A DNA stretch of 5,720 nt from a virus: positions 1-5,720 of IMG/VR virus record IMGVR_UViG_3300045988_019579; one strand, 5' to 3'. The position numbers and the translations under genes are program-made. Position 1 is the first letter of the stretch. Each line of letters opens with the position of its first letter. The notes below the pieces were generated by a model. That model was given only the letters and a program-made list of their open reading frames with translations. It was not told the origin of the DNA and searched no databases. Below are positions 1 to 5,720 of this stretch, piece after piece.

Positions 1-55
1 GCCTTTTAGGTATTGCATTACCTGTTCGTCATTTGTTCCGGATTTGCTCATGCTC
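1..55. repeat. Terminal redundancy: 55 nt identical to 5666-5720 (circular genome closure, unit length 5665 nt)
   Basis: Base-by-base comparison of 1-55 (gccttttaggtattgcattacctgttcgtcatttgttccggatttgctcatgctc) with 5666-5720 gives identity at all 55 positions. The repeat sits exactly at both window ends, as expected for a k-mer overlap of a circular assembly. Confidence 0.95.
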
Positions 56-234
56 TGACTGCTTCCGCTGCCTTGCTGTGTGCTTCCGCCTGCGCTCTGG
101 CTTTGTCCTGTTTGACCCCATCCACCGAATAACCTTCCAACGTTTCCTGCGGCATTTGCCACATTTCCTATTGTGTTTGCTACTGTTCCAATGCCTCCGG
201 CTAACATCAAGAAGTCGTCTATTCCAAACGCCAT
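1..234 (-). CDS. VP2: VP2 minor capsid / DNA pilot protein, N-terminal part. The true ATG is at 234-232 and the ORF continues across the circular junction into 5665..4991.
   Basis: Manual translation of the minus strand from ATG 234 gives MAFGIDDFLMLAGGIGTVANTIGNVANAAGNVGRLFGGWGQTGQSQSAGGSTQQGSGSSQS. This runs in frame with no stop into MSKSGTNDEQVMQYLKG, which is the start of the 241-aa track ORF. An in-frame TAA lies 2 codons upstream of ATG 234, so this is the first possible start. The Gly-rich hydrophobic N-terminus is typical of microvirus VP2. Confidence 0.8.
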   Translation of the reverse strand, partial: MAFGIDDFLMLAGGIGTVANTIGNVANAAGNVGRLFGGWGQTGQSQSAGGSTQQGSGSSQSMSKSGTNDEQVMQYLKG

Positions 235-244
235 TTTTTAAAAT

Positions 245-264
245 AGCCGGGATTTCTCCCGGCT
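245..264 (-). promoter_or_regulatory. Stem-loop between the VP1 stop and VP2 start (weak intrinsic terminator/attenuator and/or SD-to-AUG bridging hairpin)
   Basis: The minus strand reads CTG TAA GAAAGGAGGA AGCCGGG AGAAAT CCCGGCT ATTTTAAAAA ATG. It has a perfect 7-bp stem (245-251 / 258-264) and a 6-nt loop, followed by AUUUU. The only Shine-Dalgarno for VP2 (AAAGGAGG, 266-273) lies immediately 5' of the stem. Confidence 0.55.
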
Positions 265-274
265 TCCTCCTTTC

Positions 275-1939
275 TTACAGTTTGTACAGCCCGGGCACGC
301 TGTAAAGCGGCATCCTGCGAGTTGTCTTGTTTGCTACGCGAATTGCTCCGAAGAACTGCGGTTCGTTCTCTACAATTAACGTCCTTGCAATTTCCTCTTT
401 TCCTTCTGTCATCCACTCTTGCGACAGTGTAGGAACTGCTTTGTAGTTGTCTGCATAGTGCCAGAAGTCGAGCGTTCCCGTTGCGTTGCTTCGCATTAAA
501 CCGCTTACACGGTTTGGTTTCATTCGGTAGTCTGCCCATGCTTCCTGATAGCCAAACGTTTCATCGTCTGTTGCTTCACCGGTGAGCATGATTTCTTTCT
601 TTTTTACCGGCTGTTCACCCAGATTTGCGAACTGTGGCACGTAGTAATCCAGCCTGTCCTTTCTGCTCCAAAAACGCTCAAGGCCTTGTTGGTAGCTTCT
701 GTTGTGTCTTACACAGCATACGCCAATCACAAAGCCGTGCTCTTCAAAGCTCTTCGTGAAAGAACTCTCGTTGATGGGTGTAACAGACATTGCACCGGTT
801 TCACCAATAGGTGTGTCGTTGCTTGTCTGCTGGCCACTCGTCTGCACGATTTGGTTAATGTTTACGTGATAGCGTCCACCACCCAGATATTCAGGCACTT
901 GTACCGTTTTATCTGAAATGATTACATCCCAGATTGCTTGCACCTGTTCACGGTATCTTGAGCCGCCCCGTGCCATTTCTTCGTAGTACTGTTGTACTGC
1001 GATGGCCTGTCTCAGCTGGTTGATAGTTGCTTGTGCTCCTGTTGCTGTTAGGTCTCCTGAAAGGTTTACGTACAGATTGCCTTGTTTTATTTGTGCTCCG
1101 CCTGATCCTGTTGCACCTGTTACTGTTGCCGCTCCACCACCGCCGCCGTCAATTGAACCTGCTGCCATTGAAGTTCCATTCATGAAGATTGTGCCCTGCG
1201 GTTTCTGTCCGGCTATATCTCTTAGTTCTACCGGATACAATCCGCTTAACGGGATTGTTACGTCTGGCCCTCTCTGCGGATATGGCAAACAGCTTGTGAA
1301 GTAGTCGTGGAATTTGTTTACTGGTAGAAGATTACCACCTGTTACAGCTTCCTGCAGCTCTTTTTCCATGGTGTCTTCTTCGCCTGTGCTCATTGTGTAT
1401 GTCACATCTGCATCGTCACTTTTCAGCACTGCGGCGTTGTCTACGTTTTCATCCCTGAAAAATTCGTTCCAGATTTTAACATATGCTCTGATTGGCAGTG
1501 CGTTGACACTGAACGGTTTCTTTACTTTTGTGGGTACTCCCATATAGTCCAGTATCGATTTTTCATTCGGCATTGGGGACATTTCATTTCCGTTGATTTT
1601 GATTTGTGGTACAGAATACGTTTTTGCTGGCATCCATGGAGTTTCTTCTACTTCGCCCATAAAGTATTTAAAGTTGTCCCATAAAATGCGGTTTGGACAG
1701 AAGAAATAGTAAAAGTCGATAAAACTATCGTCCATTACTGGGTATTTTGGTGTTGTCATGCGGATAATTGCCGCTGTATCCACGCTGAAAGTGTCGCCCG
1801 GTAGTACTTCGTCCACGTAAAATGGGATGAGTCTGCCCGCGTCGAACGTTGTCAAAATCGTTTGGTCTCTATTGAATCTCGTTCGGCTTGCTTTTATCTG
1901 CGGAATCTGGTTAAAATGCCGTTCATTATTCCGATTCAT
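275..1939 (-). CDS. VP1: Major capsid protein VP1 (Microviridae F-like capsid protein)
   Basis: 554-aa ORF. The N-terminus (FNQIPQIKASRTRFNRDQTILTTFDAGRLIPFYVDEVLPGDTF) and the overall length match the gokushovirus-type VP1 pattern. The ATG is preceded by GGAAGGAGAGG. It is the largest ORF in a 5.7-kb circular genome that also carries VP2/VP3/VP4. Confidence 0.95.
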   Translation of the reverse strand: MNRNNERHFNQIPQIKASRTRFNRDQTILTTFDAGRLIPFYVDEVLPGDTFSVDTAAIIRMTTPKYPVMDDSFIDFYYFFCPNRILWDNFKYFMGEVEETPWMPAKTYSVPQIKINGNEMSPMPNEKSILDYMGVPTKVKKPFSVNALPIRAYVKIWNEFFRDENVDNAAVLKSDDADVTYTMSTGEEDTMEKELQEAVTGGNLLPVNKFHDYFTSCLPYPQRGPDVTIPLSGLYPVELRDIAGQKPQGTIFMNGTSMAAGSIDGGGGGAATVTGATGSGGAQIKQGNLYVNLSGDLTATGAQATINQLRQAIAVQQYYEEMARGGSRYREQVQAIWDVIISDKTVQVPEYLGGGRYHVNINQIVQTSGQQTSNDTPIGETGAMSVTPINESSFTKSFEEHGFVIGVCCVRHNRSYQQGLERFWSRKDRLDYYVPQFANLGEQPVKKKEIMLTGEATDDETFGYQEAWADYRMKPNRVSGLMRSNATGTLDFWHYADNYKAVPTLSQEWMTEGKEEIARTLIVENEPQFFGAIRVANKTTRRMPLYSVPGLYKL

Positions 1940-2324
1940 TCTTTACCTCTCCTTCCTTTGACGTTTCCTTTGGCGTTTCCTTCTGCATCTCCTGTAGTGC
2001 AATTGTGTTTGCTTGCGCCGTTGCAATCATTCGGTGATATTCGTGAATGTTCTGCGGCCATTCGGTAATATCCATCTCTGTCCCGTCCAATGCTCCCTGT
2101 GAAAGGCTCTGCATAAACTGCGGGTCAAAACTCGCTTTTCTTACAATGTTTTTAATGTCGCATTCATCTGCATAGCTTTCAATTTCTGCTTGGATATCGA
2201 TACTTTTGGTTTCTTGCAGATATTCTTTGCCTTCTTTATCTTTTGCCCAAACGTATTGTTTTCGCTGTTTTTCGCCTGATTCAGAAAAGAAGGGCTTTCG
2301 CCCTTCTTCGTACCTTTTATTCAT
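1926..2324 (-). CDS. VP3: Internal scaffolding protein VP3 (Chlamydia-phage Chp2 scaffold-like)
   Basis: 132-aa acidic ORF directly upstream of VP1, overlapping it by 14 nt. It contains ECDIKNIVRK, resembling the ECDINxIMKKF motif I recall in gokushovirus VP3. SD GGGAGGG lies 8 nt upstream of the ATG. Confidence 0.8.
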   Translation of the reverse strand: MNKRYEEGRKPFFSESGEKQRKQYVWAKDKEGKEYLQETKSIDIQAEIESYADECDIKNIVRKASFDPQFMQSLSQGALDGTEMDITEWPQNIHEYHRMIATAQANTIALQEMQKETPKETSKEGEVKNESE

Positions 2325-2556
2325 TCGACTTACCCTCCCACACTTTCTCTTTGCAGTTGGTGAATTCTCCGTTTTCGTCGTTGAACACTGCCAGTTTGTA
2401 CCCGGTGTAGTCCTGCGGTGACTGGCCGATAAAGGTCTTTTCGTCCTTCTGCATTACGTTGCACATGCGTGCAAACGTCTGGTCGTTTTTGCTTTCACCA
2501 ATCCATGCGTAACATTTTGCTACGCTGTCCCAAACACCATAATAGGTGTGTTCCAT
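2317..2556 (-). CDS. Conserved microvirus small non-structural protein (VP5-like position), function unknown
   Basis: 79-aa ORF with SD AAGGAG 7 nt upstream of the ATG. Its stop overlaps the VP3 start by 8 nt. The pattern YGVWDSVAKCY...FARM...PQDYTGYKLAVFNDENGEF resembles the xVYDxKAxxY...AxRxF...PEDYxLxxIGxFDxxTG signature that I recall from small proteins of gut microviruses. This is a memory-based match, not a search. Confidence 0.65.
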   Translation of the reverse strand: MEHTYYGVWDSVAKCYAWIGESKNDQTFARMCNVMQKDEKTFIGQSPQDYTGYKLAVFNDENGEFTNCKEKVWEGKSNE

Positions 2557-2574
2557 TGCTTTTCTCCTTTTCTC

Positions 2575-2697
2575 TTACAGCCGAATACCGCCGCGCATAG
2601 GTTTCTGGCTCAGGTTGATGCTTTTCGTTTTTCGCGCGGTTACGTTAAACATGCGCTTGTCTTTCGCACCTTTCATTACTTTACGATGCCGGCCCAT
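2575..2697 (-). CDS. Small basic DNA-binding/packaging protein (phiX174 J analogue, gokushovirus ORF8/VP8-like), 40 aa, absent from the ORF track
   Basis: Manual translation gives MGRHRKVMKGAKDKRMFNVTARKTKSINLSQKPMRGGIRL followed by a stop. 14 of 40 residues are Arg/Lys/His. The C-terminal PMRGGIRL matches the ending I recall for gokushovirus ORF8-type proteins. SD AAGGGAG lies 7 nt upstream, and the start overlaps the preceding ORF by 17 nt. Confidence 0.72.
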   Translation of the reverse strand: MGRHRKVMKGAKDKRMFNVTARKTKSINLSQKPMRGGIRL

Positions 2698-2908
2698 TGT
2701 TGTACTCCCTTCTCATTAGCTCTAATTCTATGTCGTTTGCCAATTTTTTCATTCTCCATATTTCATCGATGATTTTTTTTGCATCTTCGATTTTGGATAC
2801 TTTTTTTATGAGCTTGAACTTTGCCTCGATGTTTGTATAGAGTCTTTCTTCTTGAAATCTTAATTCATTTTCGGTCTGGTCTCTGACGTTCCACGATTTT
2901 GCAATCAT
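2681..2908 (-). CDS. Hypothetical protein, 75 aa, charged/coiled-coil-like, no recognisable family
   Basis: The ORF fills the space exactly between neighbouring genes. SD AAGGAG lies 9 nt upstream of the ATG and is embedded in the end of the preceding small ORF. The heptad-like charged sequence is EAKFKLIKKVSKIEDAKKIIDEIWRMKKLANDIELEL. No transmembrane segment is present. Confidence 0.55.
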   Translation of the reverse strand: MIAKSWNVRDQTENELRFQEERLYTNIEAKFKLIKKVSKIEDAKKIIDEIWRMKKLANDIELELMRREYNNGPAS

Positions 2909-2914
2909 CTTTGT

Positions 2915-3031
2915 TTACTCCTTTTCGTTCGGCTGGTCGTGCAGAGCGTGATAGATCTCGTCCAGCTTTTCCAGAATCTGCATCATGATTTTGATTGCCT
3001 GCTTGACGTCTTTGATGCTGATAAGTGCCAT
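2915..3031 (-). CDS. Hypothetical small protein, 38 aa (MALISIKDVKQAIKIMMQILEKLDEIYHALHDQPNEKE), absent from the ORF track
   Basis: The ATG lies 4 nt after the peptidase stop, with AAGGGGGTG 7 nt upstream. The stop lies 6 nt before the next ATG. It reads as an amphipathic helix. Support comes only from packing and RBS geometry. Confidence 0.4.
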   Translation of the reverse strand: MALISIKDVKQAIKIMMQILEKLDEIYHALHDQPNEKE

Positions 3032-3035
3032 TTGT

Positions 3036-3425
3036 TTACACCCCCTTTCTGTATTTATTTTCTCGCACGTCTATGTGCACAAAGTTATTGTACCTGATTA
3101 CTCCACCGCCTAATTCGCCGAGCACCTTGCTCGCATATTCTGCCACCTCCTTGCTATTATGATTTTTTACTACAATGTCGGCCGCCATGCCTTTCACGTG
3201 ATAGCTGTTTTTTGCGCCGCCTACTTTTGTGTTCCATGTTGGTGTTCTGTATCCTGAATTGATGATTACTGGTTCTTTAAAGTGCTCTCTGATTCTTTCT
3301 AAGAGTGCGAGCAGTTCAGGTGCCCACAAAAATTCTTTTGTTCCGTCTTTGCATCTAAATTCTTCTGCTTTGAAGTGTTGCGTTAATCGGTCGTTGTTTG
3401 TTTGGTTTAGGATTGCTGTACTCAT
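3036..3425 (-). CDS. Zinc D,D- or L,D-peptidase of the LAS/M15 superfamily (Peptidase_M15_3 / DUF882-like), putative peptidoglycan hydrolase
   Basis: 129-aa ORF with an exact SxHxxGxAxD signature (S74-Y-H76-V-K-G79-M-A81-A-D83) and SGYR (57-60). A distal HxD (FVH117-I-D119) gives the H/D/H zinc ligand set. The N-terminal region FKAEEFRCKDG is typical of the family. There is no signal peptide or transmembrane segment. SD AAGAGGTGG lies upstream of the ATG. Confidence 0.88.
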   Translation of the reverse strand: MSTAILNQTNNDRLTQHFKAEEFRCKDGTKEFLWAPELLALLERIREHFKEPVIINSGYRTPTWNTKVGGAKNSYHVKGMAADIVVKNHNSKEVAEYASKVLGELGGGVIRYNNFVHIDVRENKYRKGV

Positions 3426-3446
3426 TTTAGACCACCTCTTGTTTGT

Positions 3447-3475
3447 ATTTTATTTTTTTCTGTTCGCTTTGTCAA
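3447..3475 (-). promoter_or_regulatory. Sigma70-type promoter driving the whole minus-strand gene array
   Basis: The minus strand reads AAAATTTTTTAAAAAAACC TTGACA (3475-3470), a 17-nt spacer, TAAAAT (3452-3447), then ACAAAC AAGAGGTGGT CTAAA ATG. The -35 is a perfect consensus, the spacing is optimal, the -10 matches 5/6, and an A/T-rich UP-like tract lies upstream. The predicted start near 3440 gives a leader of about 15 nt. Confidence 0.6.
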
Positions 3476-3503
3476 GGTTTTTTTAAAAAATTTTGGCAAA
3501 GCG
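3465..3503. promoter_or_regulatory. Imperfect 39-bp palindrome overlapping the -35 element (possible operator)
   Basis: CGCTTTGTCAA (3465-3475) and TTGGCAAAGCG (3493-3503) are inverted repeats with 1 mismatch. They flank GGTTTTTTTAAAAAATT, which is itself nearly palindromic. Confidence 0.4.
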
Positions 3504-3524
3504 AGCAGATGCCCGCGGCAGGCG

Positions 3525-3688
3525 TTTTTAACATTTTCCACAGACTTTTCAACATTTCCACATTGTTAAACTTTAGCATAACAGAGTGTTTTAACATTTT
3601 AACATTTTCTCAACAAATCTTTTAACGTTTGTTTTTACTGTTTTTTAACGTTCTAACGTTCAAAATTATCTGTTTTCAACTTTTCCAC
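3525..3688. repeat. Iteron array: AACATTT(T)(CCACA) copies and TTTTAACGTT copies
   Basis: Plus-strand copies of the first motif are AACATTTTCCACA 3530-3542, AACATTTCCACA 3551-3562, tandem AACATTTT 3593-3600 and 3601-3608, and CAACTTTTCCAC 3677-3688. Copies of the second motif are TTTTAACGTT 3620-3629 and 3643-3652, and TAACGTT 3654-3660. Most copies are preceded by a T-run. Confidence 0.7.
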
Positions 3689-3728
3689 TCACTCTACTAC
3701 TACGGCTACAACAAGTTAATATTATAAA

Positions 3729-3774
3729 TACGCGTGCGCATGTGCGCGCGTCTACGCGTGCGCATGTGCGCGCG
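3729..3774. repeat. Tandem direct repeat, 2 x 22 nt, TACGCGTGCGCATGTGCGCGCG, perfectly alternating pyrimidine/purine and GC-rich
   Basis: Unit 1 is 3729-3750 and unit 2 is 3753-3774. The units are identical and separated by TC. Each contains the palindromes ACGCGT, TGCGCA, CATG and GCGCGC, and a self-complementary core GCGCA-TG-TGCGC. Confidence 0.9.
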
Positions 3775-3795
3775 ATACATTAGCATCTATCGATA

Positions 3796-3855
3796 GCGAC
3801 AGCCCCATGAGTTGGGGCGCTGTCGCAAGGGGGAGACCAAAGGTCTCCCCCTTGC
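3796..3855. other. Two abutting long hairpins (ssDNA/RNA secondary-structure elements)
   Basis: In hairpin A, GCGACAGCCCCA (3796-3807) pairs with TGGGG (3813-3817) plus CTGTCGC (3820-3826), with a 2-nt bulge and loop TGAGT. In hairpin B, GCAAGGGGGAGACC (3825-3838) pairs perfectly with GGTCTCCCCCTTGC (3842-3855), giving a 14-bp stem and loop AAA. A 10-bp perfect palindrome CTATCGATAG sits just before them at 3787-3796. Confidence 0.85.
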
Positions 3856-3929
3856 TAAACTGAATAGAGTGTAATGTGCTGTTTTTAAATCATTTTTCGG
3901 TGTCTCTTTGAGAAACCAAACGGAAGAGT

Positions 3930-3963
3930 AAGCCCAGTACCCTACTTGATAGGTACTGGGCTT
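3930..3963 (-). terminator. Strong hairpin 12 nt downstream of the VP4 stop (candidate end of the transcription unit or ssDNA structural element)
   Basis: AAGCCCAGTACC (3930-3941) and GGTACTGGGCTT (3952-3963) form a perfect 12-bp stem with a 10-nt loop. On the minus strand it is followed by ACTCTTCCGTTTGGTTTCTC, which is only a weak U-tract, so terminator function is uncertain. Confidence 0.4.
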
Positions 3964-3974
3964 GGTGACACCAA

Positions 3975-4994
3975 TTAGAGAATTCCACGTTTTTTCGTTT
4001 GTTTTTTGATAACACGCTCCTTTGTTTCTAACTGTGTTTTGTAGTCTTTGCCTTCCAGCTGTAGCCTTTTTTGCTCGATTGCTTTTCTTTGTCTGTTCTG
4101 CTTGATTCTCCAAAGCCTTTCAGGGTTTTCTTTTTCCATCATTTTTTCATAGTACCTCGGTATTTGTGCTTTCTTTCCGTTGGTGCATTGAATGTAGCCT
4201 TGTTTCCAGATTTCTTCTTTGTGCTCCTGATAGTAGGCATCTCCTAGCCCCGGTTTAAGTGACATACACGCGAATGGCTTTTGCTGTCCTAGCTCATAGT
4301 ATGCATTTGATTTCTGGCCGTTAATTTCGTACATCTTTTTCGTTACGTATCCTGCAACATATCTATATGTTTCTGGTACTGCTTGTGCGATTTGGATTTG
4401 TCCGTTTCCCCATAGCTTCTTCATCCATTCACTTGTGTAATACCCGTTGTGGTGAATTTTGTACAGCTGTTTCAGGTCTGTTGCTTCCCATCCGTATAGT
4501 ATCATATGGTAGTGCGGCCTTGCCGTTTGTTCTCCATATTCTCCCGCACAGAAGAACCTTAATTTTGCTTTGTATGCTTTTCTGAGTCTCTTTAAGAATT
4601 TTTGTACGTCTGTGTATAGTAGTGTTTGCACACTTTCCGGTGATTTTTCCCCCGGCTTCCATACATACTGTACTTTTCTCATGATTTCGCCCGTTTTAAG
4701 AATCATTCCCGGTACATGGTCATCATCATAGGTTAATGTTATAAACCATACTTGTTCTTTCGGCCATTGTCGCGCTTCTAGTTCAATTCTTGTTGTCCAG
4801 TCTTCTCTTTGCTGTATTCTGCATCCTATGCATTGCCCACAAGGTATTAACATAACCTTTGGTTCATACATCAAATCTTCATATTTTAATTTTTTGCCCA
4901 CTCTTTCAGAAAAGCGGGCAAGTGAATACACTTGCCCGCTGATTTCTCTGTTTTCTGGGCTGTATATCCGTATTAACGGTTTATAGCAGCTCAC
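3975..4994 (-). CDS. VP4: Replication initiation protein VP4 (HUH rolling-circle endonuclease, phiX174 gpA-like)
   Basis: 339-aa ORF with motif 1 FITLTYDD, HUH motif RPHYHMILYG and the catalytic double-Tyr motif YRYVAGYVTKK (compare gpA YVAKYVNKK). It also carries the gokushovirus-type N-terminus SCYKPL and the Cys cluster PCGQCIGCR. The start is GTG at 4994-4992, overlapping the VP2 TGA (GTGA). Confidence 0.93.
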   Translation of the reverse strand: MSCYKPLIRIYSPENREISGQVYSLARFSERVGKKLKYEDLMYEPKVMLIPCGQCIGCRIQQREDWTTRIELEARQWPKEQVWFITLTYDDDHVPGMILKTGEIMRKVQYVWKPGEKSPESVQTLLYTDVQKFLKRLRKAYKAKLRFFCAGEYGEQTARPHYHMILYGWEATDLKQLYKIHHNGYYTSEWMKKLWGNGQIQIAQAVPETYRYVAGYVTKKMYEINGQKSNAYYELGQQKPFACMSLKPGLGDAYYQEHKEEIWKQGYIQCTNGKKAQIPRYYEKMMEKENPERLWRIKQNRQRKAIEQKRLQLEGKDYKTQLETKERVIKKQTKKRGIL

Positions 4995-5716
4995 TTTAAA
5001 TAATCACCCGGCTTTCTCTTTTGTCCGTAGCTTCCTGTTTTGTCTTGCATGGTTATTGCGTTCTTTTTTGCGCCACCAAAGTTTTGTGCTGTTATGCCTC
5101 CATGCTCGTTTTTTCCGGATGTTCTGTTGTTTGGCACGTTGTTATTCATTACGTTATTGACACCCTGGTTAATTCCATCGAGTGCTTTTGCTAATCCATA
5201 CGGTGACATTCCTGTTGAACTTAGCATCTGATTCCAGCTTTGTGCTGCGTTGTACCAATCACTTTGTGACCAGCTTTCACTGCTGTACGAGTTTGGCACA
5301 AAGCCGCTTGCCCTGCTTACTCCTAAAGCACTTGCTGTCGGTGCTCCCATGCTTGCGCCTGAAATCGTTCCTGCGCTACCTCCCGGCGTGCTTGCGCCGC
5401 CGTTTTGGAATGCCAATATAGGATTAAGTCCAGCTTTTTTCATGTCCTCAACTGCCCTCTGATAGGCTGTATTTGACATGTATTCTTGCCATTCCCGGTT
5501 TTTCATTGCTTCTGTCGAGTTAAAGTTCATTGCCGCCGCGTTCTCGATGTGATTGTATATGCCTTGCGCGATTGCTCCCAACGTGTTGTAACCCATCTGT
5601 TCTAGCATCGATCGCTGGTTAAACTGGCTTTGTCTTTGTCCTTCTGCGTTCTGATATTGGTATGCGCCTTTTAGGTATTGCATTACCTGTTCGTCATTTG
5701 TTCCGGATTTGCTCAT
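4991..5716 (-). CDS. VP2: VP2 minor capsid / DNA pilot protein, C-terminal 241 codons. The ATG at 5716 is internal, and the real start is at window position 234 across the junction.
   Basis: It contains YQRAVEDMKKAGLNPILAF, the AGLNP motif typical of gokushovirus VP2, and a Gly/Ser/Ala-rich low-complexity tract. It lies between VP1 and VP4. The reading frame is open upstream through 5717-5720, which equals 52-55, and continues to 234. Confidence 0.85.
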   Translation of the reverse strand: MSKSGTNDEQVMQYLKGAYQYQNAEGQRQSQFNQRSMLEQMGYNTLGAIAQGIYNHIENAAAMNFNSTEAMKNREWQEYMSNTAYQRAVEDMKKAGLNPILAFQNGGASTPGGSAGTISGASMGAPTASALGVSRASGFVPNSYSSESWSQSDWYNAAQSWNQMLSSTGMSPYGLAKALDGINQGVNNVMNNNVPNNRTSGKNEHGGITAQNFGGAKKNAITMQDKTGSYGQKRKPGDYLK

Positions 5717-5720
5717 GCTC

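Follow-up and report, generated by a model that had tools for sequence, protein, structure and literature searches.

Roux and coworkers (2012; PMC3394797) described M15_3 peptidases in the Gokushovirinae and Alpavirinae of the human and animal gut that were horizontally acquired, had a Faecalibacterium (Firmicutes) affinity and had bacterial homologues adjoining holins, and an endolysin role was proposed for them. M15 peptidases in microviruses were taken up again in 2020 (PMC7062461) and 2022 (PMC9239249), and in the later literature the microviral peptidases are regarded as lysis-associated accessory genes. A microvirus peptidoglycan hydrolase, Gp7 of Ebor, was found in 2025 to be active in vitro by zymogram and to be present in virions in trace amounts (PMC11980548). 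The subject here is a peptidase gene in the IMG/VR virus record IMGVR_UViG_3300045988_019579, of which positions 1 to 5,720 were analyzed (this whole stretch of 5,720 nucleotides is called the window). The ends of the window form an exact 55-nucleotide direct repeat (1-55 and 5666-5720) and, because of this terminal overlap, the window is a complete circular gokushovirus-type genome of 5665 nucleotides, belonging to a small gut phage with single-stranded DNA. We propose that the peptidase is probably the lysis enzyme of this gokushovirus, a holin-less endolysin.

The presence of the peptidase in gokushoviruses is established knowledge. More than 100 microvirus records in GenBank match it, many of them annotated as peptidase (for example KX513868 and KX513876, 'peptidase M15', and MG945781, 'similar to peptidase'). 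A first-pass annotation of the window, made from the sequence without database searches, had presented the Microviridae as phages without an endolysin. That description fits the phiX174-type phages only, since M15_3 enzymes of gokushoviruses and alpaviruses have been known since 2012 (PMC3394797), and the annotation's own reservation that the gene may not be unprecedented was well placed in view of that publication and the GenBank entries. It also called the mechanism uncharacterized, which agrees with the literature found: this does not address export of the microviral enzyme, mentions holins only as neighbors of bacterial homologues, and yielded no description of an export mechanism for a microviral peptidase or of a microvirus holin. 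New with respect to the published accounts found are the clade-wide presence of the gene, the limits of the promoter-plus-gene cassette and the systematic lack of membrane proteins.

The gene, its signals and the cassette that contains them are located as follows.

3036..3425, minus strand: M15_3/LAS zinc peptidoglycan peptidase, single domain, 129 amino acids (PF08291), ATG start
3177..3206, minus strand: SYHVKGMAAD, matching SxHxxGxAxD, residues 74-83, zinc ligands H76 and D83 (motif located in the translation)
3069..3077, minus strand: HID, residues 117-119, H117 as third zinc ligand and D119 as catalytic Asp (from alignment)
3475..3447, minus strand: promoter of the sigma-70/sigma-A type, TTGACA-17-TAAAAT, ending 21 nucleotides before the peptidase ATG
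3432..3439, minus strand: Shine-Dalgarno site of the peptidase, AGAGGTGG (GAGGTGG), from a ribosome-binding-site scan
3015..3565, minus strand: exchanged cassette of promoter, ribosome-binding site and peptidase, approximate limits, ~550 nucleotides (from sliding-window identity)

The protein is small and basic (14.7 kDa, isoelectric point 9.4). It scores 94.2 bits with Pfam Peptidase_M15_3 (PF08291; cutoff 23.2, E 6.8e-27), spanning positions 2-108 of the 108 in the profile, and also matches PHROG 894 'endolysin' (E 4.6e-38), with a weaker Pfam match to Peptidase_M15_2/DUF882 (E 2.6e-08). The first-pass annotation had assigned the 129-residue open reading frame (ORF) to the LAS/M15 enzymes on the strength of an SxHxxGxAxD plus HxD signature; both motifs were located, with the residues H76, D83, H117 and D119, and the profile search bears the assignment out. 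S74, H76, G79 and D83 are invariant in 83 peptidases of the clade of related gokushoviruses described below and in 46 database homologues, and H76, D83, H117 and D119 are invariant in both of these sets and in the tailed-phage and Clostridia relatives (in the clade alignment of 83 genes, two truncated sequences stop before H117). The triad H76/D83/H117, to which the annotation had pointed, has thus not been lost in the relatives. The ligands are invariant despite an identity of only ~45% between the peptidase types of the clade, and the ratio of nonsynonymous to synonymous substitution rates (dN/dS) of the gene is 0.33.

The only solved structure retrieved by sequence is 1LBU from Streptomyces albus G (E 3.6e-06 with the single sequence and 5e-12 with a profile), whose motifs SRHMYGHAAD and HTHV align with the ligand motifs of the peptidase. 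Structure prediction, which had been proposed along with the assignment, gave mixed support. The AlphaFold2 model is confident (predicted local distance difference test, pLDDT, 87; predicted template modeling score, pTM, 0.83) and its matches include LAS folds. In the PDB these were 1LBU, Hedgehog N-domains, VanXYc, LysECD7 and the RB49 L-Ala-D-Glu peptidase, with template modeling (TM) scores of only 0.45-0.48, and among predicted viral structures they were phage M15A peptidases with TM ~0.9. Membership in the family is therefore firm on sequence and moderate on fold, because the PDB fold matches are weak. As far as its sequence allows a judgment, the product of the ORF is most likely a single-domain M15_3 (LAS) zinc peptidase that is catalytically competent and would cut the peptide part of peptidoglycan.

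Cellular homologues were sought in one genome per bacterial species. The closest are overwhelmingly from gut Clostridia, with 44-52% identity over the full length (E 1e-20 to 1e-38), and come from Lachnospiraceae, Oscillospiraceae, Acutalibacteraceae, Christensenellaceae, Oscillibacter and Faecousia. Typically these are proteins of 216-253 amino acids consisting of M15_3 and one or two PG_binding_1 domains, and their genes directly adjoin a holin of the Phage_holin_4_1 family (PF05105) with 2-4 transmembrane segments. The microviral proteins end where the wall-binding domain would start. Of a canonical holin-endolysin cassette, the virus therefore has just the catalytic core, since both the PG_binding_1 domain and the holin of the Clostridia homologues are missing. 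An N-terminal strand region is common to the microviral and Clostridia enzymes and is absent from enterobacterial phage versions. The nearest relatives overall share 40-52% identity with the peptidase across the full length and comprise both Clostridia proteins and proteins annotated as endolysins in SP6/K1-5-like and Proteus phages; homologues in virion proteins (tape measure and plate proteins) are much more remote, with partial matches only. These comparisons suggest that the peptidase most likely descends from the catalytic domain of endolysins of gut-Clostridia phages, captured without the holin or the C-terminal wall-binding domain.

Relatives of the virus were gathered in three ways: through the peptidase (15 microvirus genomes), through the replication protein Rep at an identity of at least 81% (80 genomes), and through o75, a small ORF downstream of the peptidase (38 further genomes). 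Retrieval through Rep and o75 constitutes sampling that is independent of the presence of the peptidase. The same gene at the same locus, which the first-pass annotation had proposed to look for in related microviruses, was present in all 123 clade genomes with an assessable locus, and the only peptidase-less contigs of the clade are three truncated ones of 4.0-4.8 kb. The peptidases fall into types that share ~45%, 60-68%, 74-78% or 90-96% identity with the one in the window, and the types do not track the backbone. The allele of the window is 64% identical to the best GenBank microvirus peptidase and 96% identical to IMG/VR contigs.

Two genomes delimit the unit that is exchanged. L001 shares 94-98% nucleotide identity with the window in ~3015-3565 only and 40-70% elsewhere, and its backbone proteins are distant (VP1 58%, VP4 50% and VP2 32% identical). 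The converse is seen in L028, which is MZ821031, the closest GenBank genome (91% nucleotide identity across 92% of the length): its nucleotide identity is 90-100% except in ~3015-3565, and its backbone is 92-99% identical while its peptidase is only 49% identical. The breakpoints are sharp and lie in the same place in both comparisons. Promoter, ribosome-binding site and gene thus travel together between distant gokushovirus backbones, forming one self-contained unit. Kirchberger et al. (2022; PMC9239249) described a recombining peptidase region and one comparable case of exchange. Such free exchange is not what one would expect of a protein tied to a particular capsid or viral partner.

The promoter carried by the cassette is the single 11/12 match of the genome. 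The whole genome has 7 promoter-like matches, no more than the 8.6 expected by chance. In 61 of 85 related genomes, however, the peptidase has a match of at least 11/12 upstream of it regardless of the peptidase type, and because of this recurrence the promoter is taken to be real. The earlier description of it as the only strong promoter, lying ahead of the peptidase, is therefore upheld.

No route across the membrane is apparent for the enzyme. Its residues 1-35 have no hydrophobic core (highest 10-residue hydropathy -0.07), and none of 75 distinct peptidase N-termini of the clade is hydrophobic. The N-terminal hydrophobic segment of signal-anchor-release (SAR) or signal-peptide endolysins is not found in the peptidase, as the first-pass annotation had also concluded. 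A longer peptidase that begins with a signal peptide at an upstream start was ruled out, because an in-frame stop at 3452-3450, 24 nucleotides before the ATG, excludes an N-terminal extension; relatives with extended gene calls have polar N-termini. The coding strand of the window holds no transmembrane ORF, the highest 19-residue Kyte-Doolittle value being 1.38 and thus below 1.6. This value comes from the Gly/Ala-rich N-terminus of VP2, which is the only recurrent semi-hydrophobic segment of the coding strand (1.3-1.55 in many clade genomes), and 45 complete clade circles contain no conserved coding-strand stretch with transmembrane-level hydropathy. The earlier statement that no transmembrane ORF exists on the minus strand is correct in that neither the window nor the clade has a holin-like ORF, but the hydrophobic N-terminus of VP2 had been overlooked, because the circle is cut inside VP2. 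The two parts of this gene are located as follows.

1..234, minus strand: N-terminal part of VP2, including the Gly/Ala-rich hydrophobic MAFGIDDFLMLAGGIGTVANTIGNVANAAG (the gene crosses the circle cut; 55-nucleotide overlap)
4991..5665, minus strand: remainder of VP2 (pilot protein), phrog_8742, E 1.8e-93

In its real form VP2 has 302 amino acids, starts at 234 and runs on the minus strand through 234..1 and then 5665..4991, in agreement with the 909-nucleotide VP2 of MZ821031. The ORF list of the linear window holds it only as a truncated form of 241 amino acids. The locus shares with holin-endolysin cassettes a muralytic-type enzyme without a secretion signal and does not share their small transmembrane partner. 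Single-gene lysis of the phiX174 E type is not a match either, the peptidase being a soluble enzyme in its own reading frame. Two contigs considered as holin-bearing microviruses (L016 and L017) were rejected; they are without VP1 or VP4 and encode proteins of 522 and 810 amino acids.

The host is probably one of the Bacillota (Clostridia), with a thick wall against which a wall-degrading enzyme would be of use. One clue is that Clostridia dominate among the closest cellular homologues of the peptidase, and a second is the combination of near-consensus TTGACA/TATAAT promoters with GGAGG-type ribosome-binding sites on 7 of the 9 genes. Bacteroidota have different promoter motifs and show little Shine-Dalgarno pairing. 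Another is a complete integrated gokushovirus with the peptidase on a 177-kb contig of Oscillibacter sp. PC13, a cultured isolate of the Oscillospiraceae (L123 4875-9706; NZ_FOXE01000003.1, ~141.5-146.4 kb). The gene order of this prophage is Rep, an o40-like gene, a peptidase of 127 amino acids, VP5, VP3, VP1 and VP2. It adjoins a tyrosine recombinase (L123 3640-4653, minus strand), and its bacterial flanks encode an SLH-domain glycosyl hydrolase, a RadA-like protein and Amidase_3. A further clue is a 2022 report of microviral prophages in two Firmicutes isolates. No mention of the PC13 gokushovirus prophage was found in the literature. The same prophage has an ORF of 107 amino acids (L123 5533-5856, plus strand) that is overprinted on the 3' part of Rep in another frame and contains a strongly hydrophobic segment (2.38). 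This ORF has no counterpart in the window and may be an effect of composition, many hydrophobic alternative-frame ORFs being present in the prophage genome.

The endolysin reading is favored because the nearest relatives are endolysins, the active site is kept throughout the clade, and the gene is an autonomous module. Under this proposal the peptidase would be made in the cytoplasm, would be harmless there as canonical endolysins are, and would reach the wall only once some other viral activity breaches the membrane. The lysis or membrane-lesion function is probably supplied by a core gene, since gokushoviruses that have no peptidase still lyse their hosts on core genes alone, and the peptidase would add to it, perhaps on account of a thick host wall. 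Gokushovirus EC6098, which is one of these peptidase-less viruses, lyses E. coli, and gokushoviruses are without a recognizable lysis gene (PMC7062461). The Gly/Ala-rich N-terminus of VP2 is the leading candidate for the membrane lesion because it is the only conserved hydrophobic element, and it is a weak candidate. Confidence in any specific release route within the endolysin reading is low.

Several points weigh against this proposal. No muralytic activity, bond specificity or lysis phenotype is on record for any gokushovirus M15 enzyme, and no holin, signal peptide, SAR domain or conserved transmembrane ORF was found in the 45 complete genomes. The VP2 segment, at 1.3-1.55 on the Kyte-Doolittle scale, is under the usual transmembrane threshold, and the homologous pilot protein H of phiX174 is not known to cause lysis by itself. 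Among the PDB fold matches none has E <= 0.001, and two spurious phosphatases rank at the top. Loss of the wall-binding domain is unusual for endolysins of Gram-positive hosts and fits a virion enzyme equally. The host assignment is indirect, the Oscillibacter virus being only distantly related (VP1 43% identical). Furthermore, a complete circle with a 65%-identical peptidase (L102; CAVKUS010000079.1, 5739 nucleotides) is binned in a metagenome-assembled genome of 'Bacteroides sp. CAG:545'; this binning of a single contig is unreliable as host evidence and conflicts with the Clostridia signals.

A broader alternative to the endolysin reading, though an unlikely one, is that the peptidase needs no membrane-lesion partner. 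It would then either destroy murein precursors in the cytoplasm, as an enzymatic counterpart of 'protein antibiotic' lysis, or be carried by the T=1 virion and open a Gram-positive wall at entry. If this were true, it would define a way of lysing or entering cells that has yet to be demonstrated for single-stranded DNA (ssDNA) phages, in a would-be Clostridia-infecting lineage of microviruses.

Considered separately, a virion-associated enzyme is a rather unlikely explanation. A few packaged copies would digest the wall for DNA delivery through the VP2 tube, at entry only or, like P5 of phi6, at both entry and exit. Such an enzyme arrives from outside, so the missing holin and export signal would be directly explained, and the lost wall-binding domain is in keeping with virion lysins, which typically lack one. 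M15_3/M15A domains do occur in phage proteins of 800-1191 amino acids and in annotated tape-measure and plate proteins; the closest homologues of the peptidase, however, are free endolysins in lysis cassettes. The small size of the protein and its basic isoelectric point of 9.4 are consistent with packaging, as is the position of its gene at the head of a transcript that also carries morphogenesis genes, but neither a packaging signal nor a fusion to a structural protein was seen. Ebor Gp7 is detectable in virions, which supports the idea in principle, and only at trace level, which speaks against it (PMC11980548). The distribution of the cassette also speaks against packaging. It swaps between capsids that are only 53-58% identical, and types ~45% identical to each other occur in near-identical capsids. 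Because of this free movement between divergent capsids, specific packaging into the T=1 shell is unlikely.

A dependence on the small genes downstream is a doubtful explanation. Here the peptidase would rely on o38 and/or o75 for holin-independent delivery or control, comparable to the chaperone-like Gp1 that assists LysA of mycobacteriophage Ms6 on its way to the wall. These two genes and the next one, o40, are located as follows.

2915..3031, minus strand: o38, acidic amphipathic-helix protein of 38 amino acids, in nearly all clade genomes, dN/dS 0.13
2681..2908, minus strand: o75, soluble two-helix hairpin protein of 75 amino acids, dN/dS 0.23, AlphaFold2 pLDDT 91
2575..2697, minus strand: o40, basic protein of 40 amino acids, phrog_10695 with E 2.2e-09, dN/dS 0.11

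The first-pass annotation had called the 38- and 75-residue ORFs orphans. The ORFs exist but are not orphans, being present clade-wide and under purifying selection, which is one of the points that count for a dependence. Another is the order peptidase, o38 and o75, which is invariant in ~120 clade genomes. This co-occurrence, however, is inseparable from shared ancestry, the sampled genomes being a single clade, and likewise the 38 of 38 extra genomes retrieved via o75 that carry the peptidase all belong to this clade and are hence uninformative on the independence of o75. A third point is the junction between the genes. The o38 ATG (3031) is 4 nucleotides after the peptidase stop, and the o38 ribosome-binding site AAGGGGGTG (window 3036-3050) lies inside the conserved end of the peptidase gene, where it is made of the last codons, R-K-G-V. 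The tail 'YRKGV' is kept between peptidase types that are only 45% identical, while non-microviral homologues end in 'RW(K/R)G'. This suggests that translation of the peptidase and o38 may be coupled and that the last codons of the peptidase would be under double constraint.

The o38 helix is strongly amphipathic (hydrophobic moment 0.64), and o75 is close in size to Ms6 Gp1. Neither protein is hydrophobic, however, and o38 is acidic (net charge -2, highest hydropathy 0.98). Nothing significant was found for either one in Pfam, PHROGs or PADLOC. The o75 model has helices at 13-36 and 40-70, and an attempt to derive a function from this fold was abandoned because the PDB yields generic helical hairpins only (CHMP4B hairpin, E 0.5). 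The o75 family comprises more than 1000 clusters; of the best 120, nearly all are on contigs no larger than a microvirus genome and none has a Pfam annotation. The genes also fail to follow the peptidase. In L028 o38 is 92% identical in spite of the 49%-identical peptidase, and in L182 the pair (o38 100%, o75 91% identical) accompanies a different peptidase (46%) and a different backbone (VP1 55%, Rep 72%). It follows from these two patterns that o38 and o75 do not co-evolve with the peptidase, and from the L182 identities that the pair is also exchanged as a module, independent of the peptidase. o75 itself varies between otherwise close genomes (59% identity in L028 and L004). Finally, the PC13 prophage has the peptidase and neither o38 nor o75, and all that L102 offers is a weak o38-like ORF at another position.

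Cleavage of wall precursors in the cytoplasm, taken by itself, is quite improbable. The peptidase would trim UDP-MurNAc-pentapeptide or lipid II in the manner of VanX/VanXY, and growing cells would lyse from wall starvation, in parallel to phiX174 E. Neither a holin nor a signal would be required, and the autonomy of the cassette suits a protein that acts on its own. Cytoplasmic precursor cleavers are known in the M15 clan, VanXYc is among the fold matches, and 1LBU, a muramoyl-pentapeptide DD-carboxypeptidase, is the best relative in the PDB. The nearest homologues, however, carry wall-binding domains and lie beside holins, so they act on mature wall outside the membrane, and no positive support was obtained, substrate specificity included. 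Single-domain M15 endolysins of tailed phages have routinely been overproduced in E. coli without self-lysis, which also counts against it.

A hidden holin, either an overprinted or antisense small membrane protein or a small intergenic ORF, is very improbable: the hydrophobic antisense ORF of 85 amino acids opposite the peptidase (3229-3486, plus strand, hydropathy 2.42) is expected because the coding strand is A-rich and T-poor (37.5% A, 18.6% T), and it was rejected since shuffling of synonymous codons gives P = 0.59, other genes behave alike, and the window has no plus-strand promoter better than 9/12. Stop-free hydrophobic antisense stretches of at least 80 amino acids occur in 50 of 85 genomes, and a complementary-strand ORF beside one peptidase has been described (PMC3394797). 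The stop-free stretch 'VLGIIILIA' just after Rep in some relatives was rejected as well: a conserved DNA hairpin (3930-3963) lies underneath it, in most genomes it has too few residues to cross a membrane, and in the window it lacks hydrophobicity; nor do the 45 complete genomes hold a conserved coding-strand candidate.

The -35 hexamer of the peptidase promoter lies within a dyad symmetry, located as follows.

3459..3509, no strand assigned: inverted repeat with 25-nucleotide arms, 84% complementary, 1-nucleotide spacer, containing the -35 hexamer (repeat scan)

Such an arrangement occurs in at least 3 unrelated sequence versions across the clade, namely with 25-nucleotide arms, with arms of 13-14 nucleotides, and as a GC-rich hairpin that has TTGACA in its loop and is followed by a T-run. 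Dyads were found in the peptidase upstream regions of L007-L010, L040, L055, L059, L073 and others. Arms of at least 16 nucleotides are present in 19 of 85 genomes, compared with a mean of 5.7 and a maximum of 11 nucleotides in the shuffled null. The dyad at the -35 hexamer may serve as an operator, may combine a terminator with an overlapping promoter, or may fold into a hairpin when the genome is single-stranded.

All genes are on the minus strand according to the ORF list, Pfam and PHROG, in the order VP2, VP4 Rep, a non-coding region of 550 nucleotides, peptidase, o38, o75, o40, VP5, VP3 scaffold and VP1. Pfam confirms the gokushovirus-type gene set with Phage_F, Chlamy_scaf, Phage_ORF5 and REP_ORF2-G2P, and PHROG adds the pilot protein. 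The remaining genes with mapped limits are located as follows.

3975-4994, minus strand: VP4 Rep, Pfam REP_ORF2-G2P
275-1939, minus strand: VP1 capsid, Pfam Phage_F, E 1.8e-138

The non-coding region after Rep is rich in repeats. It contains a perfect 22-nucleotide tandem repeat in two copies (GC-rich, alternating, TACGCGTGCGCATGTGCGCGCG), three perfect or near-perfect hairpins with arms of 14, 12 and 11 nucleotides, and a run of TTTTAACATT-type repeats in 4-5 copies; the elements lie at 3729-3774, 3796-3855, 3930-3963 and 3525-3690. They are probably signals for replication origin or termination. An Rfam scan of the window gave sub-threshold chance matches only and nothing for these repeats.

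Few phages of the mammalian gut are as abundant as the gokushoviruses, yet no lysis gene has been identified in this group. The clade described here represents a natural experiment, in which an endolysin core without holin and wall-binding domain is kept in every assessed genome and traded together with its own promoter. The evidence from the clade sharpens, without answering, the question of how an enzyme that has no signal acts without a holin. If the enzyme works alone or by way of a core virion protein, it would reveal a minimal mechanism of lysis or entry and, if so, would also be a very small wall-degrading enzyme (14.7 kDa) against gut Clostridia. With its cultured Oscillibacter host, the peptidase-bearing PC13 prophage could serve as a laboratory model, and it extends the short list of links between microviruses and Gram-positive-type hosts.

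Among known systems, phiX174 E and other single-gene lysis proteins are similar to the present case in that a small genome with minimal coding capacity has no holin-endolysin pair. They differ in mechanism, as E is a non-enzymatic membrane protein that inhibits MraY, whereas the peptidase is a soluble hydrolase without a membrane segment. SAR and signal-peptide endolysins, as well as Ms6 LysA with its chaperone Gp1, are precedents for reaching the wall without a classical holin. The peptidase departs from these routes, since it has no N-terminal hydrophobic segment, and o38 and o75 have no homology to a known export helper.

Ebor Gp7 (Tainavirinae) is an accessory peptidoglycan hydrolase of ~146 amino acids and the only one of an ssDNA phage that has been demonstrated to be active. 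It apparently belongs to another family (HHpred match to PDB 6SSC) and its host is a Gram-negative alphaproteobacterium. Because 6SSC is not retrieved by the M15 profile, Gp7 is treated as a functional analogue only. Ebor also encodes a predicted membrane protein of 45 amino acids, Gp1, and the clade here is without such a protein. The zinc D-Ala-D-Ala carboxypeptidase 1LBU (MEROPS M15A) is the best true fold match, and its H-x6-D and H motifs align with those of the peptidase. It differs in being a secreted protein of 213 amino acids with an extra N-terminal domain, and at ~23% identity and a TM score of 0.48 its bond specificity is not transferable.

The endolysins of SP6/K1-5/K1E-like phages, of Proteus Autographiviridae and of Chaseviridae (for example the SP6 endolysin, PM93 gp43 and Myduc gp19) resemble the peptidase closely in architecture. 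They are bare catalytic domains of ~115-120 amino acids without a signal and are 41-48% identical to it. The tailed-phage genomes differ in that annotated membrane proteins adjoin or overlap the endolysin, and their hosts are Gram-negative. Records of Vibrio phages list a 'TMhelix containing protein'. The endolysins of Clostridia phages and prophages share all catalytic residues with the peptidase and are 44-52% identical to it across the whole catalytic domain. They differ in their length of 216-253 amino acids, one or two wall-binding domains and an adjoining holin, and the microviral gene is without both the wall-binding domain and the holin. The closest counterparts are the M15_3 peptidases of other gokushoviruses and of alpaviruses, which are like the peptidase of the window in Pfam family, size, virus group and their position between Rep and VP5.

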